The notes under the pieces: model-generated | What the model was told of the DNA's origin: nothing | Database searches by the model: none | What the model saw: the letters and a program-made list of their open reading frames with translations, nothing else | In this document: positions 4,265-43,466 of the stretch, piece by piece | Layout of the letters: each line of letters begins with the position of its first letter | Numbering within the stretch: the stretch's first letter is position 1 | Translations under genes and position numbers: made by a program | Source: an uncultured Gammaproteobacteria bacterium | GTDB lineage: Bacteria > Patescibacteriota > Patescibacteriia > Magasanikbacterales > GWA2-37-8 | Assembly (NCBI GenBank): GCA_964596525.1 | Contig: CAZQUL010000001.1 | Location: 396,830-460,829, forward strand | DNA length: 64,000 bases | Direction: 5' to 3'

Positions 4265-4549
4265 ATGTTTGACTATTTCTTTGTTACGGTACCTTCCCTT
4301 ACGCTACCGGAAATCATTATCCATGTGGTCGGAATGCTGGGAGCGATTCTTTCTGCCTACGGTGTTTTTTTGGAAGAGGAAAAACGCCAGGATGCGGTTT
4401 TTTTGCTCGGCGGATCATGCCTCTTGGTATTCGCTCTGCTCGTCAAAAGTTACATTTTCATCATTGCTAGCGGACTTTTTACGCTCGCGAGTCTCATCGA
4501 ATTCGTTTCTATTCTGCGCGGCCGCCATCATCACCATCCGATGGCGTAA
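4265..4549 (+). CDS. small membrane protein, paralog 2 (His-rich C-terminus RGRHHHHPMA)
   Basis: Internal Met of ORF 4109..4549. Hydrophobic helices. Tandem duplicate of the previous gene. Confidence 0.4.
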   Translation: MFDYFFVTVPSLTLPEIIIHVVGMLGAILSAYGVFLEEEKRQDAVFLLGGSCLLVFALLVKSYIFIIASGLFTLASLIEFVSILRGRHHHHPMA

Positions 4550-4567: not shown

Positions 4568-5560
4568 ATGCTCGATCTTTTGGCTATCGGCGATCCCGTC
4601 ATTGATACGCACGTACAACTCGATGAATCAAGTGTGGATTGCTATGTCGACGAAATTAATCCAACTAAGCTGTGTTTAAGTTACGGTGAAAAAATTCCCA
4701 TCGTCGATAGTTTTCAGAGTTTGGGTGGTAATGCGCCTAACGTAGCGGTGGCGGCCGCAACACTCGGACTCTCGAGCGCGCTGATTGCTACCATTGGACG
4801 CGATGTGCACGGCGAAATGGCTATAGCCGAACTGCGGCGACATGGCGTTAACGTGGATATGGTGAGTCACGACGACAAGCATCCGACGCGCTATTCTATC
4901 ATTCTCAACTACCGTGCCGAACGGACTGTACTGTCATATTCGACTGAAAAAAATTATCAGTGGCCCGACCATGTACCGAGTGCTGCGTACGTGTATTACA
5001 CAGGACTCAGTAAAGGCTTCGAGGTGCTCCAAGATCATCTTGTAGAATATTTGGCTACCCATCAGACGACAGAACTCGTCATTAATCCGGGTTCGTATAT
5101 CATGAAATACGCTAAGGAAAAATTACTGGAACTTTTACCTCGCACCGATATCCTTATCGTCAACAAAGAAGAAGCCGAAGCGCTTTCCGGCACCACCTGG
5201 CAGCGAGAAAAAAGTTACACTGCGCTCATGCATAAGCTTCTGGCTTATGGTGTGCGTGAAGTGGTTTTGACGGACGGAAAAAAAGGCTCGTGGGTTGCGA
5301 CTATGGACGAAGTGTGGCATCAAAGTGCGTTTCCCATCGATGTGGTGGCTAAGACCGGCGCTGGAGATGCATTTTCGGCAGCGTATCTCGCAGCCCGCCG
5401 ATCGGGACACGCCCCTTCCGAAGCGATTCGTTGGGGTACGGCCAACAGTACGGCTGTTATCGCCGAGCATGGGCCGCACCGCGGATTGCTTAGTCGTTCC
5501 ACTCTAGAGCAGAGTCTTACGCGCTTTAAAGATATTAAACCGGAAGCAGTGGTTGAATAA
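4568..5560 (+). CDS. PfkB-family carbohydrate/nucleoside kinase (ribokinase-like)
   Basis: 330 aa. N-terminal GDPVIDT, C-terminal TGAGDAFSAAYL anion-hole motif of the ribokinase family. Clustered with rpiB and rpe. Confidence 0.75.
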   Translation: MLDLLAIGDPVIDTHVQLDESSVDCYVDEINPTKLCLSYGEKIPIVDSFQSLGGNAPNVAVAAATLGLSSALIATIGRDVHGEMAIAELRRHGVNVDMVSHDDKHPTRYSIILNYRAERTVLSYSTEKNYQWPDHVPSAAYVYYTGLSKGFEVLQDHLVEYLATHQTTELVINPGSYIMKYAKEKLLELLPRTDILIVNKEEAEALSGTTWQREKSYTALMHKLLAYGVREVVLTDGKKGSWVATMDEVWHQSAFPIDVVAKTGAGDAFSAAYLAARRSGHAPSEAIRWGTANSTAVIAEHGPHRGLLSRSTLEQSLTRFKDIKPEAVVE

Positions 5561-34481: not shown

Positions 34482-34522
34482 AGTCGACGGCGTAAATGAT
34501 TCGTACAAGAGGGTGTATTTTT

Positions 34523-34878
34523 TTGACATTGCGAACTTTTTTTAGTAGTCTATTCTTATCAGCGTCACACCTCGTATCATGAGGAATCTCACAAAGAACG
34601 CTCGGGAAAGAAATTCTCACGAAAAGTAGACTCCCGCGGGATGGCCCGTCAGCGCCGTAACCAAGCAAACGTTGAGATGGTACCGTCGGTCCCGCGAACG
34701 CGGGGAAGACTCTCGACACCCTAATCAGGTGTTTTTATTTTTTATCTGGTGTCATTGCGAGCGAAGCGAACCAATCTCCCGAATTTACCTCGGGCTCTAC
34801 TAACAAAGTTGGTTCTGAAAACGAAGGGATTGCTTCGTCAGTCGTCTAACTCCTTCCTCGCAATGACAGAAAAAACGT
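34523..34878 (+). promoter_or_regulatory. ileS promoter (TTGACA, 17 nt, TAGTCT) and an approximately 330-nt leader with a T-box-like GAGAUGGUACCGUCGG element, carrying MITE copy 1
   Basis: TGGTACCG at 34677-34684 resembles the T-box core (AGGGUGGNACCGCG). Small hairpin with a GUAUCAU loop at 34563-34577. Terminator-like hairpin with T-run at 34717-34741. Confidence 0.3.
34751..34867 (+). mobile_element. 117-nt palindromic MITE/RPE-like element, copy 1 (ileS 5' leader)
   Basis: Terminal inverted repeats GTCATTGCGAG / CTCGCAATGAC. Nested inverted repeat CGAAGC.AATC.CC ... GGGATTGCTTCG. About 85% identical to copy 2. Confidence 0.7.
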
Positions 34879-37800
34879 ATGCTCTACAACGCCAATTCTG
34901 AGGAGAAAAAAATCATCGAATTTTGGAAAAAGAACAACATATTTGAACGCTCAGTTACAGAACGCCCCACCGAAAAACCGTACGCGTTTTACGACGGCCC
35001 GCCCTTTGCGACCGGCACGCCGCACTACGGCCACTTGGTCGGGAGCACGATGAAAGATATCGTGCCGCGTTTTTGGACCATGAAAGGGTATCGTGTCGAG
35101 CGCGTCTGGGGTTGGGACTGCCACGGGCTTCCCATCGAAAACATCGTCGAGAAAGAGCTCGGTATTTCGACCAAAAAAGAACTTGAAGAAAAAGTCGGCG
35201 TCGCGAAATTCAATCAACTCTGCCGCGAGCGGGTTTTGGGATACGTTGATGAGTGGCGCACGGTCATCGAGCGCCTCGGCCGCTGGGTGGATATGGACCA
35301 TGCCTATCGCACCATGGACCGCTCATACATGGAATCGGTGTGGTGGGTGTTTAAACAGCTCTTCGACAAAGGCTATTTGTACGAGAGTTTCCGCTCGATG
35401 CATATCTGCCCGCGCTGCGAAACGACGCTCAGCCAATCCGAAGTGACGGAGGGGTATAAGGAGGTGAAAGATATTTCGGTCGTCGCGAAATTCAAGATCA
35501 CGAATGCGAAAGAAAAGCTCGGACTCGATGGTGATGTGTACGCGCTCGCGTGGACGACGACGCCGTGGACGTTGCCGGGGAATGTGGCATTGGCGGTTGG
35601 GGCTGATCTCGACTACGTCATTGCGAAGTCTTTTTCCAGTGTCATTGCGAGCGAAGCGAAGCAATCCCCCGAATCCACCTCGGGCTCTGTTAGCACAGTT
35701 GGTTCTGAAAACGAAGGGATTGCTTCGTCCTCCGCTACGCTCCGTCCTCGCAATGACGGTGTTTATTATGTCGTTGCCAAAGAACGAGCTGAGACTGTTT
35801 TTAAGGGTCAAGAATATGAACTCGTGAAAGAAATCAAAGGCTCTGAACTCGTCGGCCTCACCTACGAACCGCTCTTCCCGTACTACAAAAATACCCCGAA
35901 CGCCTTCCGTATCGTCACGTCCGATCATGTCACGACCGACGCCGGTACGGGCATCGTGCACATCGCCCCGGCGTTCGGTGAAGACGACTTTAAAGTCGGC
36001 GTACGTGAGAATATTCCGCTCGTGCAGCATGTCGGTATGGACGGTCGCTTCAAACCCGAACTGACGGATTTCGCGGGCGAACCGGTTAAGCCGCGCGGCG
36101 AAGATAAAGAACGTCTGGCGACGGATATCAAGATCTTGCGCTATCTCCAAGAACACGGCACGTTCTTCAGTAAAGAAAACGTCGTGCATACCTACCCGCA
36201 CTGCTGGCGCTGCGATACGCCACTCCTTAACTACGCCACGTCGTCGTGGTTCGTGAACGTGACGAAACTCAAGCCAAAACTCCTCGAGACGGCCACGAAT
36301 ATTTCCTGGTCGCCCGAGAACATGAAAGAAGGTCGTTTCGGCACGTGGCTCGAAGGCGCGCGCGACTGGAGTATTTCGCGCCAGCGGTTTTGGGCGTCGG
36401 TCATTCCGGTGTGGCGCTGCGATAAAGACGAAAAACACCAGGATGTCATCGGCGCGGTCGCGGAACTCGAAGTAAAATACGGCCACAACATCGACGACCT
36501 GCACAAAGACATCGTCGATCGGGTTACGTATCCGTGTGCCAGCTGCAACGGCACGATGAAGCGCATCCCCGACGTGCTCGATACGTGGTTCGATTCCGGC
36601 TCGATGCCGTACGCGCAAGTACATTATCCGTTTCAGAACAAAGAAAAATTCGAGCAGAGTTTCCCAGCCGAGTATATTGGCGAAGGACAGGACCAAACCC
36701 GTGCCTGGTTTTACTACCTGCATGTGTTGGCCGGCGCGATCATGGATAAGCACGCCTTCAACCACGTGATCGTCAACGGCATTGTGCTCGCCGAAGACGG
36801 CAAAAAAATGAGCAAGAAACTCAAGAACTATCCTGATCCGTCAGTCGTCATGGAAAAATATGGCGCTGACGCACTCCGGTTCTACATGGCCTCATCGCCC
36901 GTTGTCCATGCGGAAAATCTCAACTTCTCGGAAGACGGCGTGAAAGAAATTTTCGGCAAGCTCGTCAACACGCTCTGGAACGTCTACGAATTTTACGAGC
37001 TCGCGGCCGATGTCGATCATCACGGACCCGAACATAAATCGAGTCACGTGCTCGACAAATGGATTCTCGCTAAACTCCACGCGACGATGAAAGAAACGAC
37101 CGAACATCTCGAAGGCTACCGTTTGGCTGAAGCTGCGCGACCGATTCTGGCGTTCGTCACCGAACTCTCGCAGTGGTACGTGCGCCGGAGCCGCGAACGG
37201 TTGAAAGGCGATGATACAAAAGACAAGCAGGGCGCGCTCCACACGCTCCGTATCGTACTCCTCACGACCTCAAAACTTCTCGCGCCGTTTGCGCCGTTCG
37301 TCGCGGAGACGATTTATCAAAAGTTAAAGACAGCGAACGACGCGGATAGCGTGCATCTGTGCGAATGGCCCCATCACAAAGACGTTGAAAAAGAAGACGG
37401 TATCCTTGAGCGCATGGAAGAAGTCCGCAAAATCGTCGAGCTTGGTCTTGCTGTGCGCGCCGAGAAGAAATTGAAAGTCCGCCAGCCGCTCGCCGAACTC
37501 AAGATGAATCGCAAGCAACTTGCGCAGGATTATTTGGATATCGTCGCCGACGAACTGAATGTGAAAAACGTCGCGTTTGCCGAAGCAGTGACTACTGATG
37601 CGTGGGCCGAGAAAACTGAAGGCGAAACGACCGTGTGGCTCGATACGCGTGTGACGGAAGAACTGAAAGAAGAAGGCATGGTGCGTGATCTCGTGCGCGC
37701 GGTCAATCAGCTGCGCAAGGATCAGGGGCTCACGCCGAAAGATCGGATTGCGGTGGTATATGCCGGCAGTGAAACCATGGACGTATTGATTAAAAAATAT

Positions 37801-37914
37801 GGTTCGGAACTACAGACGAATGTTTTGGCCGAGCGGATTACGGCAGGCGAGGTTGCAGAAGATGCTGTTAAAATCGGCGATAGCGAAGTGCGTTTGCATA
37901 TCGAGCGTATGTAA
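34879..37914 (+). CDS. ileS: isoleucine--tRNA ligase (type 2, eukaryote/archaeal-like), with an in-frame 39-codon MITE insertion
   Basis: 1011 aa. HYGH and KMSKK class I motifs. CP1 editing domain (TTPWTLP), Zn-binding CPRC...CASC. N-terminus of type-2 IleS (FWKKNNIF). Confidence 0.9.
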   Translation: MLYNANSEEKKIIEFWKKNNIFERSVTERPTEKPYAFYDGPPFATGTPHYGHLVGSTMKDIVPRFWTMKGYRVERVWGWDCHGLPIENIVEKELGISTKKELEEKVGVAKFNQLCRERVLGYVDEWRTVIERLGRWVDMDHAYRTMDRSYMESVWWVFKQLFDKGYLYESFRSMHICPRCETTLSQSEVTEGYKEVKDISVVAKFKITNAKEKLGLDGDVYALAWTTTPWTLPGNVALAVGADLDYVIAKSFSSVIASEAKQSPESTSGSVSTVGSENEGIASSSATLRPRNDGVYYVVAKERAETVFKGQEYELVKEIKGSELVGLTYEPLFPYYKNTPNAFRIVTSDHVTTDAGTGIVHIAPAFGEDDFKVGVRENIPLVQHVGMDGRFKPELTDFAGEPVKPRGEDKERLATDIKILRYLQEHGTFFSKENVVHTYPHCWRCDTPLLNYATSSWFVNVTKLKPKLLETATNISWSPENMKEGRFGTWLEGARDWSISRQRFWASVIPVWRCDKDEKHQDVIGAVAELEVKYGHNIDDLHKDIVDRVTYPCASCNGTMKRIPDVLDTWFDSGSMPYAQVHYPFQNKEKFEQSFPAEYIGEGQDQTRAWFYYLHVLAGAIMDKHAFNHVIVNGIVLAEDGKKMSKKLKNYPDPSVVMEKYGADALRFYMASSPVVHAENLNFSEDGVKEIFGKLVNTLWNVYEFYELAADVDHHGPEHKSSHVLDKWILAKLHATMKETTEHLEGYRLAEAARPILAFVTELSQWYVRRSRERLKGDDTKDKQGALHTLRIVLLTTSKLLAPFAPFVAETIYQKLKTANDADSVHLCEWPHHKDVEKEDGILERMEEVRKIVELGLAVRAEKKLKVRQPLAELKMNRKQLAQDYLDIVADELNVKNVAFAEAVTTDAWAEKTEGETTVWLDTRVTEELKEEGMVRDLVRAVNQLRKDQGLTPKDRIAVVYAGSETMDVLIKKYGSELQTNVLAERITAGEVAEDAVKIGDSEVRLHIERM
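35641..35757 (+). mobile_element. 117-nt palindromic MITE/RPE-like element, copy 2, inserted in frame in the ileS CP1 region
   Basis: Same TIRs. Encodes VIASEAKQSPESTSGSVSTVGSENEGIASSSATLRPRNDG between conserved IleS segments (...DYVIAKSFSS | insert | VYYVVAKERAE...). Confidence 0.7.
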
Positions 37915-42123: not shown

Positions 42124-42311
42124 TCTTGATTGTCCTGTGTAAACGCGGTGATTGCATTTCTGCAGCATGTCCGTAGTTTCCCAGCGAAACACTATTTTTG
42201 TCAAGGAACATTCTTAAAGATAAGTTCCCTGCTATTTCCTGTAGCTGTGCGTTGCTCAGAGGGTTGAGATGCCTTATAGTACCGGTACTTTTGTTGCCAG
42301 ATCTTACCGAT

Positions 42312-43466
42312 ATGAACCTTTTTGAATACGAAGGAAAAAATCTTTTTGAAAAGTATGGTATCCGCGTTCCGCGCCGCGTGCTCGTTCGCTCTCTTAACGA
42401 GATTGAACTCGCGTATCGTTCCATTGGTGTTTCGGATGTTGTGGTTAAGGCGCAGATCCTTGCTGGCAAGCGCGGCAAAAGCGGTGGAGTGAAATTTTGC
42501 TCGACGCTACAAGAGGTGTGCGAAGCGGTTAGGATGCTCCTTGGTTCGGCAGTGCTCGGCTATAAGGTAAAGGCCGTGCTTATCGAAGAAAAACTCGCGA
42601 TTGCCGAAGAGCACTATCTCTCAATCAGTTACGATACTGCTGTGCGCGCTCCGCTTTTTGTATACAGTTCAGTCGGTGGCATGGAGATTGAAGACGCGCC
42701 AGAGACAGCACTTGTCCGCCGCCTTTGTGATGTGCGCAGCATTCACGCGCCTGGTAGCCAGCCTTTTGCAGCAGAAGCGTGGAAGTGCTTTTTGGCCGAG
42801 GATGCGCGCGTTGTCGAAATTAATCCGCTCGTTAAAACTACAAATGGTGAGTGGTATGCCGCAGATGCCAAAGTCGCGCTCGATGATGATGCTTTTTTCC
42901 GCCACCCGGAATGGAAAGACGTTGAGCCCCGCACCAGCCTGCCACGCCCTCCTACGGAACGCGAAAAGTCTGCTGCCACAATAGATGAAGGCGAGGCATA
43001 CTACCGCGGCACGGCGAGCAAATATATCGAGCTCGACGGCGATATTGCCATTCTTTTTTCCGGCGGTGGGGCTTCGATTGCGAACATGGACGCGCTTATA
43101 AAAGCGGGTGGAAAGCCAGCTAACTATACGGAATATTCCGGTAATCCGCCGCGTGAGAAAGTGGCTGCGCTTGCCCATGTTGTGCTGTCAAAGCCAGGCC
43201 TCAAAGGTCTTTGGATCGCGGGTGGCGTGGCGAATTTTACAGATGTCGCCGAGACGTTCCATGGTATCGTCGACACGCTCGACAACGTAAAGCCATCGTA
43301 CCCCATCGTCGTACGCCGCGCCGGACCGAACGAAGCGGAAGGGATGCGGATTATGAATGAATGCGCCGTGCGTAACGGATTGAGCATGAAGTTGTTTGGT
43401 AAAGAAACATCGATGAGCGCAACGGCTGAAGTGCTGATGGAGATGGTAAAAGAACAGCGTGCATAA
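42312..43466 (+). CDS. sucC: succinyl-CoA synthetase beta subunit-like (ATP-grasp) protein; candidate citryl-CoA synthetase large subunit
   Basis: Start MNLFEYEGKNLFEKYGIRVP. KAQILAGKRGKSGGVK. Full SucC architecture. Confidence 0.8.
   Translation: MNLFEYEGKNLFEKYGIRVPRRVLVRSLNEIELAYRSIGVSDVVVKAQILAGKRGKSGGVKFCSTLQEVCEAVRMLLGSAVLGYKVKAVLIEEKLAIAEEHYLSISYDTAVRAPLFVYSSVGGMEIEDAPETALVRRLCDVRSIHAPGSQPFAAEAWKCFLAEDARVVEINPLVKTTNGEWYAADAKVALDDDAFFRHPEWKDVEPRTSLPRPPTEREKSAATIDEGEAYYRGTASKYIELDGDIAILFSGGGASIANMDALIKAGGKPANYTEYSGNPPREKVAALAHVVLSKPGLKGLWIAGGVANFTDVAETFHGIVDTLDNVKPSYPIVVRRAGPNEAEGMRIMNECAVRNGLSMKLFGKETSMSATAEVLMEMVKEQRA

Follow-up and report, generated by a model that had tools for sequence, protein, structure and literature searches.

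A 117-nt palindromic element is inserted in frame in the isoleucyl-tRNA synthetase gene (ileS) of a Patescibacteria/CPR genome, and a sister copy occupies the leader of the same gene. We consider it probable that the coding copy is a real in-frame insertion that was copied from the lineage of the leader element, was mobilised in trans, and survives as a translated disordered loop. Judged from its sequence, the coding copy would be a non-autonomous head-to-head dimer of CGTC/TGTC-tagged REP-like units, resembling REPINs and RPEs. The following features lie in the stretch of 64,000 nucleotides that was analysed, hereafter called the window.

Copy 1: 34751..34867, no strand assigned, 117-nt element of the ileS 5' leader, lying 3' of the T-box-like terminator and 5' of the ATG
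ileS: 34879..37914, forward strand, intact ORF of 1011 aa, type-2-like isoleucyl-tRNA synthetase, host of copy 2
Solo end-like motif CGTCATTGCGAaG: 35616..35628, forward strand, ileS codons Y246–K250, 10/11 match to the 5' end
Copy 2: 35641..35757, forward strand, 117-nt palindromic element in ileS codons 255–293, encoding VIASEAKQSPESTSGSVSTVGSENEGIASSSATLRPRND
Copy 3: 62841..62923, no strand assigned, 83-nt element with the 11-nt ends of copies 1 and 2 and a CGTC tag

The 39-codon insertion in ileS

The paired 11-nt ends GTCATTGCGAG/CTCGCAATGAC are located at 34751/34857, 35641/35747, and 62841/62913 and are perfect in all three copies, with TGTC, TGTC, and CGTC, respectively, when the base before GTC is included. 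The end motif with at most one mismatch matches seven times in the window (1.6 expected), and none of 100 shuffles reached seven. Copies 1 and 2, both 117 nt long, align without gaps and are identical at 100 of 117 positions (85.5%), and their 5' flanks match at 8 of 12 nt. The two 117-nt copies with perfect ends and about 85% identity were thus as the initial annotation had described them, but the nested inverted repeat it ascribed to both is perfect only in copy 2 (12 nt, CGAAGCAATCCC/GGGATTGCTTCG) and is degraded in copy 1. The coordinates and ends of its third copy, 83 nt at 62841, were also correct, but the interior of copy 3 is unrelated to those of copies 1 and 2 and consists of three small hairpins, so that only the ends are common. 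Copy 3 is located 12 nt 3' of the stop codon of an RmlD/epimerase-like gene (61951–62829). All three copies form long hairpins, with z-scores of -4.3 to -8.1 relative to shuffles. When up to four mismatches were allowed over the two ends, a scan of the window yielded neither additional nor decayed copies. No direct repeats indicative of a target-site duplication flank the three window copies, and the mobility of the element is therefore deduced from presence and absence only.

Copy 2 occupies exactly 39 codons (255–293) in the ileS frame and contains no stop, as had been annotated; the residue boundary required correction, since the last codons encode ...PRND and the following G belongs to the flank. 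Four of its six frames are open, which is the maximum that the ends permit. In copy 1, only one of six frames is open, and a TAA is present in the frame corresponding to the reading frame of copy 2.

The orthologues of this ileS are those of Candidatus Magasanikbacteria. The HYGH, KMSK, and WTTTPWTLP residues are invariant across an alignment of 72 IleS sequences, and the match to a PDB IleRS structure has an E-value of 2e-231; the synthetic and editing sites would remain intact. The 39-residue segment is absent from all of the 119 other IleS proteins compared, including the orthologues P0002–P0005 (78–80% identity by BLASTP). The phmmer match to PDB 8c8u_A breaks into residues 6–255 and 293–898 of the query, which are contiguous on the chain. 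The segment is thus an insertion, as previously proposed: a homologous segment in relatives, which would speak against this, occurs in none of the 119 proteins, and the segment has no counterpart in solved IleRS structures. A phmmer search with residues 251–298 against 1.84 billion representatives gave two matches, both to unrelated low-complexity repeat proteins, and a search with the 39-residue peptide in a word-indexed protein database was uninformative, giving seven candidates, none of which scored.

In the AlphaFold2 model of IleS, residues 245–251 and 295–300 form strands, and residues 255–291 are coil with pLDDT below 50. In this model, the tip of a beta-hairpin in the editing domain carries the segment as a disordered loop, in agreement with the earlier placement of the insert in the CP1/editing region. 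The same hairpin shows unrelated length variation in other IleS orthologues. A longer insertion of 47 codons, comprising the solo end, the spacer, and the element, was considered and rejected, because its removal deletes a beta-strand found in all orthologues. This strand (245–251) and the residues just 3' of the insert are modelled confidently.

Copy 2 probably survived in ileS because it landed at the length-variable beta-hairpin tip of the CP1 editing domain, is 39 codons long, and is open in the host frame; with these properties, its transcript would be translated, giving a surface loop of 39 residues that is hydrophilic and disordered, probably with a nearly neutral effect. The tryptic peptides from the insert region would include SFSSVIASEAK and QSPESTSGSVSTVGSENEGIASSSATLRPR. 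If the insert is translated and harmless, it marks a permissive loop in IleRS.

An alternative is that the insert is absent from the mature protein, owing to its removal from the mRNA or to ribosome bypass. The terminal stem of 11–12 bp pairs perfectly and would bring the junctions together. Same-ended elements also occur in frame in ychF (Daviesbacteria), uvrA, and a gene for a Wzy_C O-antigen ligase, however, and in all four intragenic cases, ileS included, the host frame is kept and the element is free of stops, which neither splicing nor bypass would need. The stop in copy 1, which lies outside the ORF, also argues against removal, as do the lack of a match to any ribozyme or intron family and the in vivo expression of R. 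conorii proteins with an N-terminal RPE-1, which is cited by Di Nocera et al. 2013 (PMC3733652). We regard removal or bypass as highly improbable. Even less credence can be given to an assembly artefact, in which a repeat-induced misjoin would have placed leader-copy sequence inside ileS. The genome is metagenome-derived, and the two copies, 890 nt apart, share 85% identity, but they differ at 17 of 117 positions and hence do not represent a collapsed or duplicated read set. Furthermore, an in-frame, stop-free insert in a permissive loop would be rare for a random misjoin, and the gene is on a 1.34-Mb contig.

The ileS leader and the probable source of copy 2

Copy 1 lies 11 nt 5' of the ileS ATG (34879), a position at which the annotation had already placed it. 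The region preceding it is a T-box-like leader.

T-box-like ileS leader: 34569..34743, forward strand, conserved in seven relatives
Short hairpin with AUC in the loop: 34569–34584, forward strand, with compensatory changes in relatives
Leader motif AAACGTTGAGATGGTACCGTCG: 34667–34688, forward strand, invariant 22-nt T-box motif
Intrinsic terminator of the ileS leader: 34717–34743, forward strand

Neither the leader nor any of the elements matched an Rfam family, at the gathering score or at E-values up to 10. The site of copy 1 is polymorphic among relatives. It is occupied by same-ended elements in relatives L192 and L194 and by an unrelated palindrome in L193, and it is empty in L195–L197, where the AUG directly follows the U-tract of the terminator. 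Copy 2, for its part, would have entered ileS only once this lineage had diverged from the relatives that have been sequenced. In all seven elements from the window and from the relatives retrieved via IleS alone, the 22 end bases are perfect. The interiors of these elements are 41–67% identical, and the four-fold degenerate sites of ileS are 40–53% identical.

The leader arrangement raises the question of whether the elements have been co-opted for cis-regulation, as RNA or DNA modules. The leader hairpin would then tune the stability or translation of the ileS mRNA, a host factor would bind or process the invariant 12-bp stem, and the coding copy would have arisen as a by-product or would offer this factor a second site. 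Perfect ends at the same leader site in three lineages, with diverged interiors and synonymous sites near saturation, are in line with this possibility, as are the absence of decayed copies from about 150 kb of the window and relatives and the position of copy 3 just after a stop codon, where most published REPs are also found. On the other hand, the lack of an element in the leader of L195–L197 indicates that the element is dispensable for ileS control, and the leader of L193 has an unrelated palindrome instead. Covariation is lacking in the triplets of the inner stem, where 89 complementary pairs were counted and 79 are expected, and these triplets thus give no support for a selected RNA helix there; the absence of an Rfam match also argues against such modules. 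A regulatory role as the explanation of the elements therefore appears improbable to us.

In their interiors, copies 1 and 2 share 85% identity with each other and 55–65% with any other element. No further member of their 117-nt subfamily was found, including in viral contigs searched with subfamily-specific DNA patterns. The same patterns gave no hits in metagenome contigs, a result that is uninformative because a control T-box motif, which is present in the JGI record L194, also gave none. Since the subfamily was found only as copies 1 and 2, the preferred reading of copy 2 is that it derives locally from the lineage of the leader copy, and the pair is no evidence of dispersal of this subfamily. 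The initial proposal of a dispersed family rather than a local triplet therefore holds for the ends, which occur in many genomes; for the 117-nt subfamily, no sign of dispersal was found.

A local source may suggest that the event was local altogether and involved no mobility specific to the element. Copy 2 would then have arisen from the leader copy by a replication template switch or by gene conversion, seeded by the chance sequence CGTCATTGCGAa in codons 246–250 and proceeding with no transposase-like factor in this genome. Copies 1 and 2 are indeed mutually closest, have the same orientation, are only 890 nt apart, and share partly similar 5' flanks. The failure to find the subfamily elsewhere, the lack of a transposase near the elements, and the near-perfect pseudo-end starting 24 nt 5' of copy 2 are also compatible with such an event. 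A template switch on the pseudo-end should, however, join the copy directly to it and not 13 nt onward. In addition, about 15% of the family show a solo end followed by a spacer and a full element, the start of the solo end mostly lying 24–28 nt away; the occurrence of this arrangement in unrelated members points to a family-wide mechanism. Elements with the same perfect ends and differing interiors, namely copy 3 and the element at 4291–4402 of L192, are likewise difficult to reconcile with a local event. We consider this explanation unlikely and prefer copying of copy 2, most likely from the lineage of the leader element 890 nt upstream, with mobilisation by a putative trans-acting factor that would read the invariant 12-bp ends.

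Distribution of the ends

Paired ends identical to those in the window were found at 71 loci in viral contigs and at least 120 loci in genomes of about 15 phyla. The genome loci include four Patescibacteria MAGs, and the same ends occur on plasmids of Novosphingobium, Methylosinus, and cyanobacteria and in Helicobacter prophages. All recovered elements are inverted pairs of units. Of 221 distinct elements, 133 have C and 80 have T immediately before GTCATTGCGAG (213/221), 193 have GCAAT near the 5' end, and 198 have ATTGC near the 3' end. The three bases after the inner GCAAT are CCA in 68, CTC in 67, and CCC in 19 of the 221 elements, copy 2 having CCC. In high-GC genomes, most of the long ORFs that read through elements had no Pfam domain and were set aside as spurious.

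Clustering of 2099 ORFs revealed no transposase or other recurrent gene within 1 kb of the elements at 191 loci; only phage structural proteins, which are common to viral contigs, recurred. A scan of 17 window ORFs around the elements also found no RAYT or transposase. We know of no dedicated transposase for CGTC-type REP dimers. A more speculative proposal, which we put forward with considerable reservation, is that the ends (C/T)GTCATTGCGAG...CTCGCAATGAC(G/A) are the site for a putative mobilising enzyme, or the mark of a phage-borne replicator, active across about 15 phyla including CPR. The insertion in ileS would then be a recent copying event from the donor lineage 890 nt upstream, with the end-like motif 24 nt upstream of copy 2 serving as a "landing pad". 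If true, the landing-pad arrangement, shared by about 15% of the family, would show by what means CGTC-type REP dimers select their targets.

Patescibacteria/CPR genomes are usually called streamlined and repeat-poor. The in-frame insertion of a "selfish palindrome" is now found in this group as well, and the tolerated targets now include an editing domain, that of an essential aminoacyl-tRNA synthetase. A filled coding site, a neighbour with 85% identity, filled and empty leader sites in relatives, and ends that stay perfect while their surroundings have diverged to near saturation together provide a natural test case for the spread and upkeep of CGTC-type REP dimers.

Comparison with known repeats

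The literature search found no report linking such insertions to Patescibacteria/CPR, and searches with sequence strings returned only primer coincidences. The initial annotation had regarded the phenomenon as undescribed for this kind of genome. The host lineage does look undescribed, but the phenomenon itself is known from Rickettsia and other bacteria, and in-frame REP insertions in tRNA synthetase genes have been catalogued.

Among the systems compared, IS-derived MITEs share terminal inverted repeats with the present elements, but neither target-site duplications nor a transposase-bearing relative was seen here. As for a self-splicing intron or intein, no Rfam match was obtained in the window at the gathering score. 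The RPEs that Ogata et al. reportedly described in 2000 and 2002 are said to be palindromic, about 100–150 bp long, and inserted in frame in conserved housekeeping genes. Like RPEs, the present element lies in frame in a conserved gene and is compatible with the protein fold; the host phylum differs. Rickettsia RPEs have a high intragenic frequency, whereas a single intragenic copy in 64 kb does not support such a frequency here. The annotation's RPE-like reading fits the ileS case, but such insertions are not confined to Rickettsia, as the 2013 catalogue of REP insertions attests. RPE-6/CGTC-1 encodes VIPAKAGI (deduced GTCATTCCCGCGAAGGCGGGAATC), and its stem differs from that of the present element. 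The RPE-4 and RPE-6 peptides in the supplement of Di Nocera et al. 2013 (PMC3733652) share the GTCATT start with the present element but not the stem.

REPINs, which are mobilised by RAYT tyrosine transposases (Y1 HUH), carry a GTAG tag, and the RAYT gene that goes with them is present in one copy with REPs on its flanks (Bertels and Rainey 2011, PMC3116915). As in REPINs, two inverted REP-like units with a spacer form a long hairpin here, and the ends are kept as the copies diverge. REPINs are tied to RAYT, but no RAYT was found near the 191 loci or in the window ORFs flanking the elements.

The closest likeness is to CGTC-tagged REPs. According to Di Nocera et al. 2013 (PMC3733652), RPE-4 is a CGTC-4 REP and RPE-6 is a CGTC-1 REP; CGTC repeats occur in five phyla, mostly as head-to-head dimers; in-frame insertions are listed, including those in uvrA and tRNA synthetase genes; and REPs lie mainly just 3' of ORFs and are thought to act at the RNA level. 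The exact end motif is absent from the supplementary tables of that paper. The present ends are more widely spread, reaching about 15 phyla, Patescibacteria among them, as well as viral contigs. The interiors here often carry extra variable hairpins. A CGTC REP has a within-unit stem of 8–9 bp and a loop of 4–5 nt, whereas only 5 bp (ATTGC/GCAAT), enclosing at least 12 nt, pair within the present unit, and the helix of 11–12 bp forms between the two units of the dimer. Because only 5 bp pair within the unit, we do not place the element in any of the four named CGTC families. The unpaired tag at the unit end of CGTC REPs (CGTC or TGTC, also CCTC) corresponds to the C or T before GTC in 213 of 221 elements, and the stem starts with AT in both (ATTGC... 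here). The short unpaired tail of CGTC REPs has the consensus CCA; here CCA is the commonest tail, in 68 elements, but CTC follows with 67, and copy 2 has CCC. CGTC-3, back-translated from the peptide VIAGLDPAI (approximately GTCATTGCCGGGCTTGACCCGGCAATCC), starts and ends like the unit GTCATTGCGAGCGAAGCGAAGCAATCC. In both kinds of repeat, the units are joined head to head and the dimer folds into a larger hairpin, and both are found in intergenic positions near the 3' ends of ORFs, where most CGTC REPs lie, and occasionally in frame within genes. On these sequence features, the architecture of the elements fits the CGTC-tagged REP superfamily.

Palindromic elements and the insertion in IleS

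The window scan located three elements at the positions given in the initial annotation, all with perfect 11-nt terminal inverted repeats.

Copy 1, 34751-34867: 117 nt, ends GTCATTGCGAG/CTCGCAATGAC; ileS leader, last base 11 nt before the ATG at 34879
Copy 2, 35641-35757: 117 nt, same ends; ileS codons 255-293 (of 1011), stop-free
Copy 3, 62841-62923: 83 nt, same ends; interior of three small hairpins unrelated to copies 1 and 2

Copies 1 and 2 are identical at 100 of 117 positions without gaps, in agreement with the initial estimate of about 85%, and inspection of the ORF confirmed the 39 stop-free codons of copy 2 and the 11-nt distance of copy 1 from the start codon. Three initial descriptions need qualifying: the nested inverted repeat assigned to both copies is a perfect 12-nt repeat in copy 2 but eroded in copy 1, the third copy shares the termini but nothing beyond them, and the peptide reported for the 39 codons had taken in one flanking glycine. 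All three elements fold into long hairpins, far above shuffled controls (z -4.3 to -8.1). The end motif occurs seven times in the window at up to one mismatch (1.6 expected), a number reached by no shuffle, and a scan for paired ends allowing up to four mismatches in total found no further or decayed copies in the window.

The nearest relatives of the IleS protein are enzymes of Candidatus Magasanikbacteria (Patescibacteria/CPR), and an identical protein is encoded on a 1.34-Mb NCBI contig. The ileS gene looks functional, judging from the invariance of the catalytic motifs HYGH and KMSK and of WTTTPWTLP (residues 225-233) across a 72-sequence alignment. As a separate observation, Pfam assigns ATP-grasp_2 and 'ATP citrate lyase citrate-binding' domains to the ORF at 42198-43463 (E = 5e-31). 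A CPR genome with reduced metabolism would not be expected to encode an ACL-like or citryl-CoA synthetase-like protein.

Sequence comparison and modeling bear out the initial proposal that copy 2 was inserted into ileS, and show its position to be permissive. The 39-residue segment is absent from all 60 aligned orthologues, including four at 78-80% identity, and among all 120 IleS proteins collected, a motif scan detected end peptides derived from the element in the window protein only. In a phmmer search against solved structures, residues 6-255 and 293-898 matched contiguous residues of IleRS 8c8u_A, leaving the insert unmatched. The insert lies after WTTTPWTLP and before the GTG.VH.AP..G.DD motif (residues 356-370), two motifs that flank the CP1 editing pocket in IleRS structures; its initial placement in the CP1/editing region is therefore right. 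In an AlphaFold2 model built from the 72-sequence alignment (mean pLDDT 80), strands were predicted at 245-251 and 295-300, with high confidence for the first strand and the residues directly past the insert, and residues 255-291 formed a coil with pLDDT below 50. The hairpin hosting the insert varies in length in other orthologues by unrelated sequence.

Codons Y246-K250 (35616-35628), which begin 24 nt ahead of copy 2, read CGTCATTGCGAa / CGTCATTGCGAaG and match the element 5' end at 10 of 11 positions, tag included. In 34 of 232 family members, a full element is preceded by a solo end and a spacer, the solo end usually beginning 24-28 nt away from the element; this arrangement may be a signature of target choice or reflect remnants of tandem units. 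We also considered that the solo end in ileS belongs to the inserted DNA. Since its removal would delete a conserved, confidently modeled beta-strand, it would more probably be a pseudo-end to which the element was drawn.

The ileS leader and the history of the locus

The locus was compared with the ileS loci of six relatives (L192-L197), fetched via their proteins. A conserved T-box-like RNA occupies 34569-34743 and is also present upstream of ileS in all six. It contains a short hairpin with AUC, the Ile codon, in a 7-nt loop, which compensatory stem changes across seven relatives support. An intrinsic terminator and the motif AAACGTTGAGATGGTACCGTCG, which is invariant, are present as well. 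The leader thus resembles a T-box riboswitch whose Stem I is very short; the Rfam T-box model gave no match to it, even at E values up to 10. The sites between terminator and ATG are as follows.

Window: same-ended element, 117 nt
L192: same-ended element, 132 nt
L194: same-ended element, 120 nt
L193 (encoding the IleS P0004), ~4745-4848: unrelated palindrome of ~100 nt, AAGCTTGGAAGGCAAGG...CCCAAGCTTCC, with no GTCATTGCGAG element
L195, L196, and L197: empty, the U-tract being followed directly by ATG

In the empty-site relatives, AUG comes immediately after the terminator without a Shine-Dalgarno sequence. Hairpin insertions seem to have a hotspot here, between terminator and ATG.

In the seven elements from the window and the ileS relatives, all 22 end bases are perfect, whereas the interiors are only 41-67% identical and the four-fold degenerate sites of ileS only 40-53%. 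This difference argues that the ends are actively maintained, via selection, turnover, or homogenization. The interior of copy 2 is 85% identical to that of copy 1, compared with 55-65% for any other element, and the 5' flanks of the two copies are alike at 8 of 12 bases, from which we infer that, after speciation, copy 2 arose by local copying from the leader lineage. Dispersal of the 117-nt subfamily (copies 1 and 2) was not borne out, as viral contigs and protein searches yielded no copies beyond the ileS pair. The metagenome scan likewise gave no copies but failed its positive control: a 22-nt pattern that JGI record 3300045345 Ga0490044_003132 (L194) contains without mismatch returned 0 matches in metagenome_contigs, and negatives from that source thus do not signify absence.

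The putative -35 region of the ileS promoter (34518-34534, TTTTTTTGACATTGCGA) holds an end-like motif, GACATTGCGAA (9/11). Over 17 nt, this region shows 88% complementarity to 34858-34874, the 3' end of copy 1 with its A-rich flank. Given the T/A runs, these matches could be due to chance.

A widespread family defined by its ends

The pattern GTCATTGCGAG-N(65-95)-CTCGCAATGAC matched 71 loci in viral contigs and at least 120 in species-representative genomes. Hosts among the matches listed include Alpha- and Gammaproteobacteria, Bacteroidota, Chloroflexota, Desulfobacterota, Planctomycetota, Bacillota, Omnitrophota, Nitrospirota, Campylobacterota, Atribacterota, a Rickettsiaceae symbiont (Tisiphia), and four Patescibacteria MAGs. 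BLAST found further copies, annotated in no record, on large Novosphingobium, Methylosinus, Methylobacterium, and cyanobacterial plasmids and in Helicobacter canis prophage records. No recurrent gene family adjoins the elements at 191 loci among the matches listed.

Features of 221 distinct elements (window and collected loci L001-L197, from the matches listed)
Base preceding GTC: C or T in 213/221, with complementary G or A after GAC, giving a 12-bp stem
GCAAT near the 5' end: 193/221
ATTGC near the 3' end: 198/221
Tail after GCAAT: CCA commonest (68 elements), followed by CTC (67) and CCC (19); copy 2 has CCC
Open frames of six: mean 2.61 versus 1.70 ± 0.05 with shuffled interiors, a depletion of stop codons to which dinucleotide bias may contribute, because the shuffle kept mononucleotide content only

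Because of the TGA in C-TCG-CAA-TGA-C, the ends block one frame on each strand, which leaves at most four open; copy 2 has four and copy 1 has one.

Elements also keep the host frame in three other genes. A Daviesbacteria MAG has one inside ychF (L172, 2182-2275), with Pfam domains on either side and a gapped, poor alignment to T. thermophilus YchF over the element-encoded stretch; a gammaproteobacterial MAG has an 87-nt copy within uvrA (L091, 2835-2921), read in the same frame as in ileS (VIAS...PRND); and in an O-antigen ligase-like ORF, an element directly precedes the Wzy_C domain (L165, 1969-2081). This preservation of frame favors translation of the ileS insert over its removal. In another Patescibacteria MAG, a 525-aa membrane protein ORF ends within an element, which contributes its final 31 codons and its stop codon (L080, 3703-3793).

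Small arrays with identical 'spacers' were seen in some viral and Bacteroidota contigs: tandem 5' half-units with a period of 41-46 nt precede full elements in L056 (733-895, 3391-3552, and 5544-5672), and solo ends of 16-18 nt are reiterated before a full element in L101 (~2729-2780).

Relation to CGTC repeats and Rickettsia elements

Di Nocera et al. 2013 (PMC3733652) recognized two superfamilies of REPs, one tagged GTAG and the other CGTC. In the latter, the tag is CGTC or TGTC, stems start with AT, the tail is CCA, most copies are arranged head-to-head as dimers, and there is no dedicated transposase (PMC3733652). The ileS element shares the tag, AT start, and dimer layout, and CCA is the commonest tail among the elements collected. 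CGTC REPs, however, require an 8-9 bp stem within the unit, whereas one unit of the ileS element has only the ATTGC/GCAAT pair, the long helix forming between units; in addition, the exact end motif is absent from the supplementary tables of that study (PMC3733652). On these sequence features, we file the element as a relative of CGTC-type REP dimers, without assigning it to a named family.

The literature searched contained no papers linking such repeats with CPR bacteria. The initial annotation knew of no such insertion in genomes of this kind, and both the lineage carrying it and its target seem to be new. Such insertions as a phenomenon are already catalogued across bacteria, in a list of numerous REPs lying in frame within genes and encoding up to 43-82 residues; uvrA, polA, dnaE2, and tRNA synthetase genes are among the hosts (PMC3733652). 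The analogy drawn to Rickettsia palindromic elements (RPEs) is literally apt, since RPE-6 (CGTC-1) and RPE-4 (CGTC-4), both from Rickettsia, belong to the superfamily that the ileS element resembles (PMC3733652).
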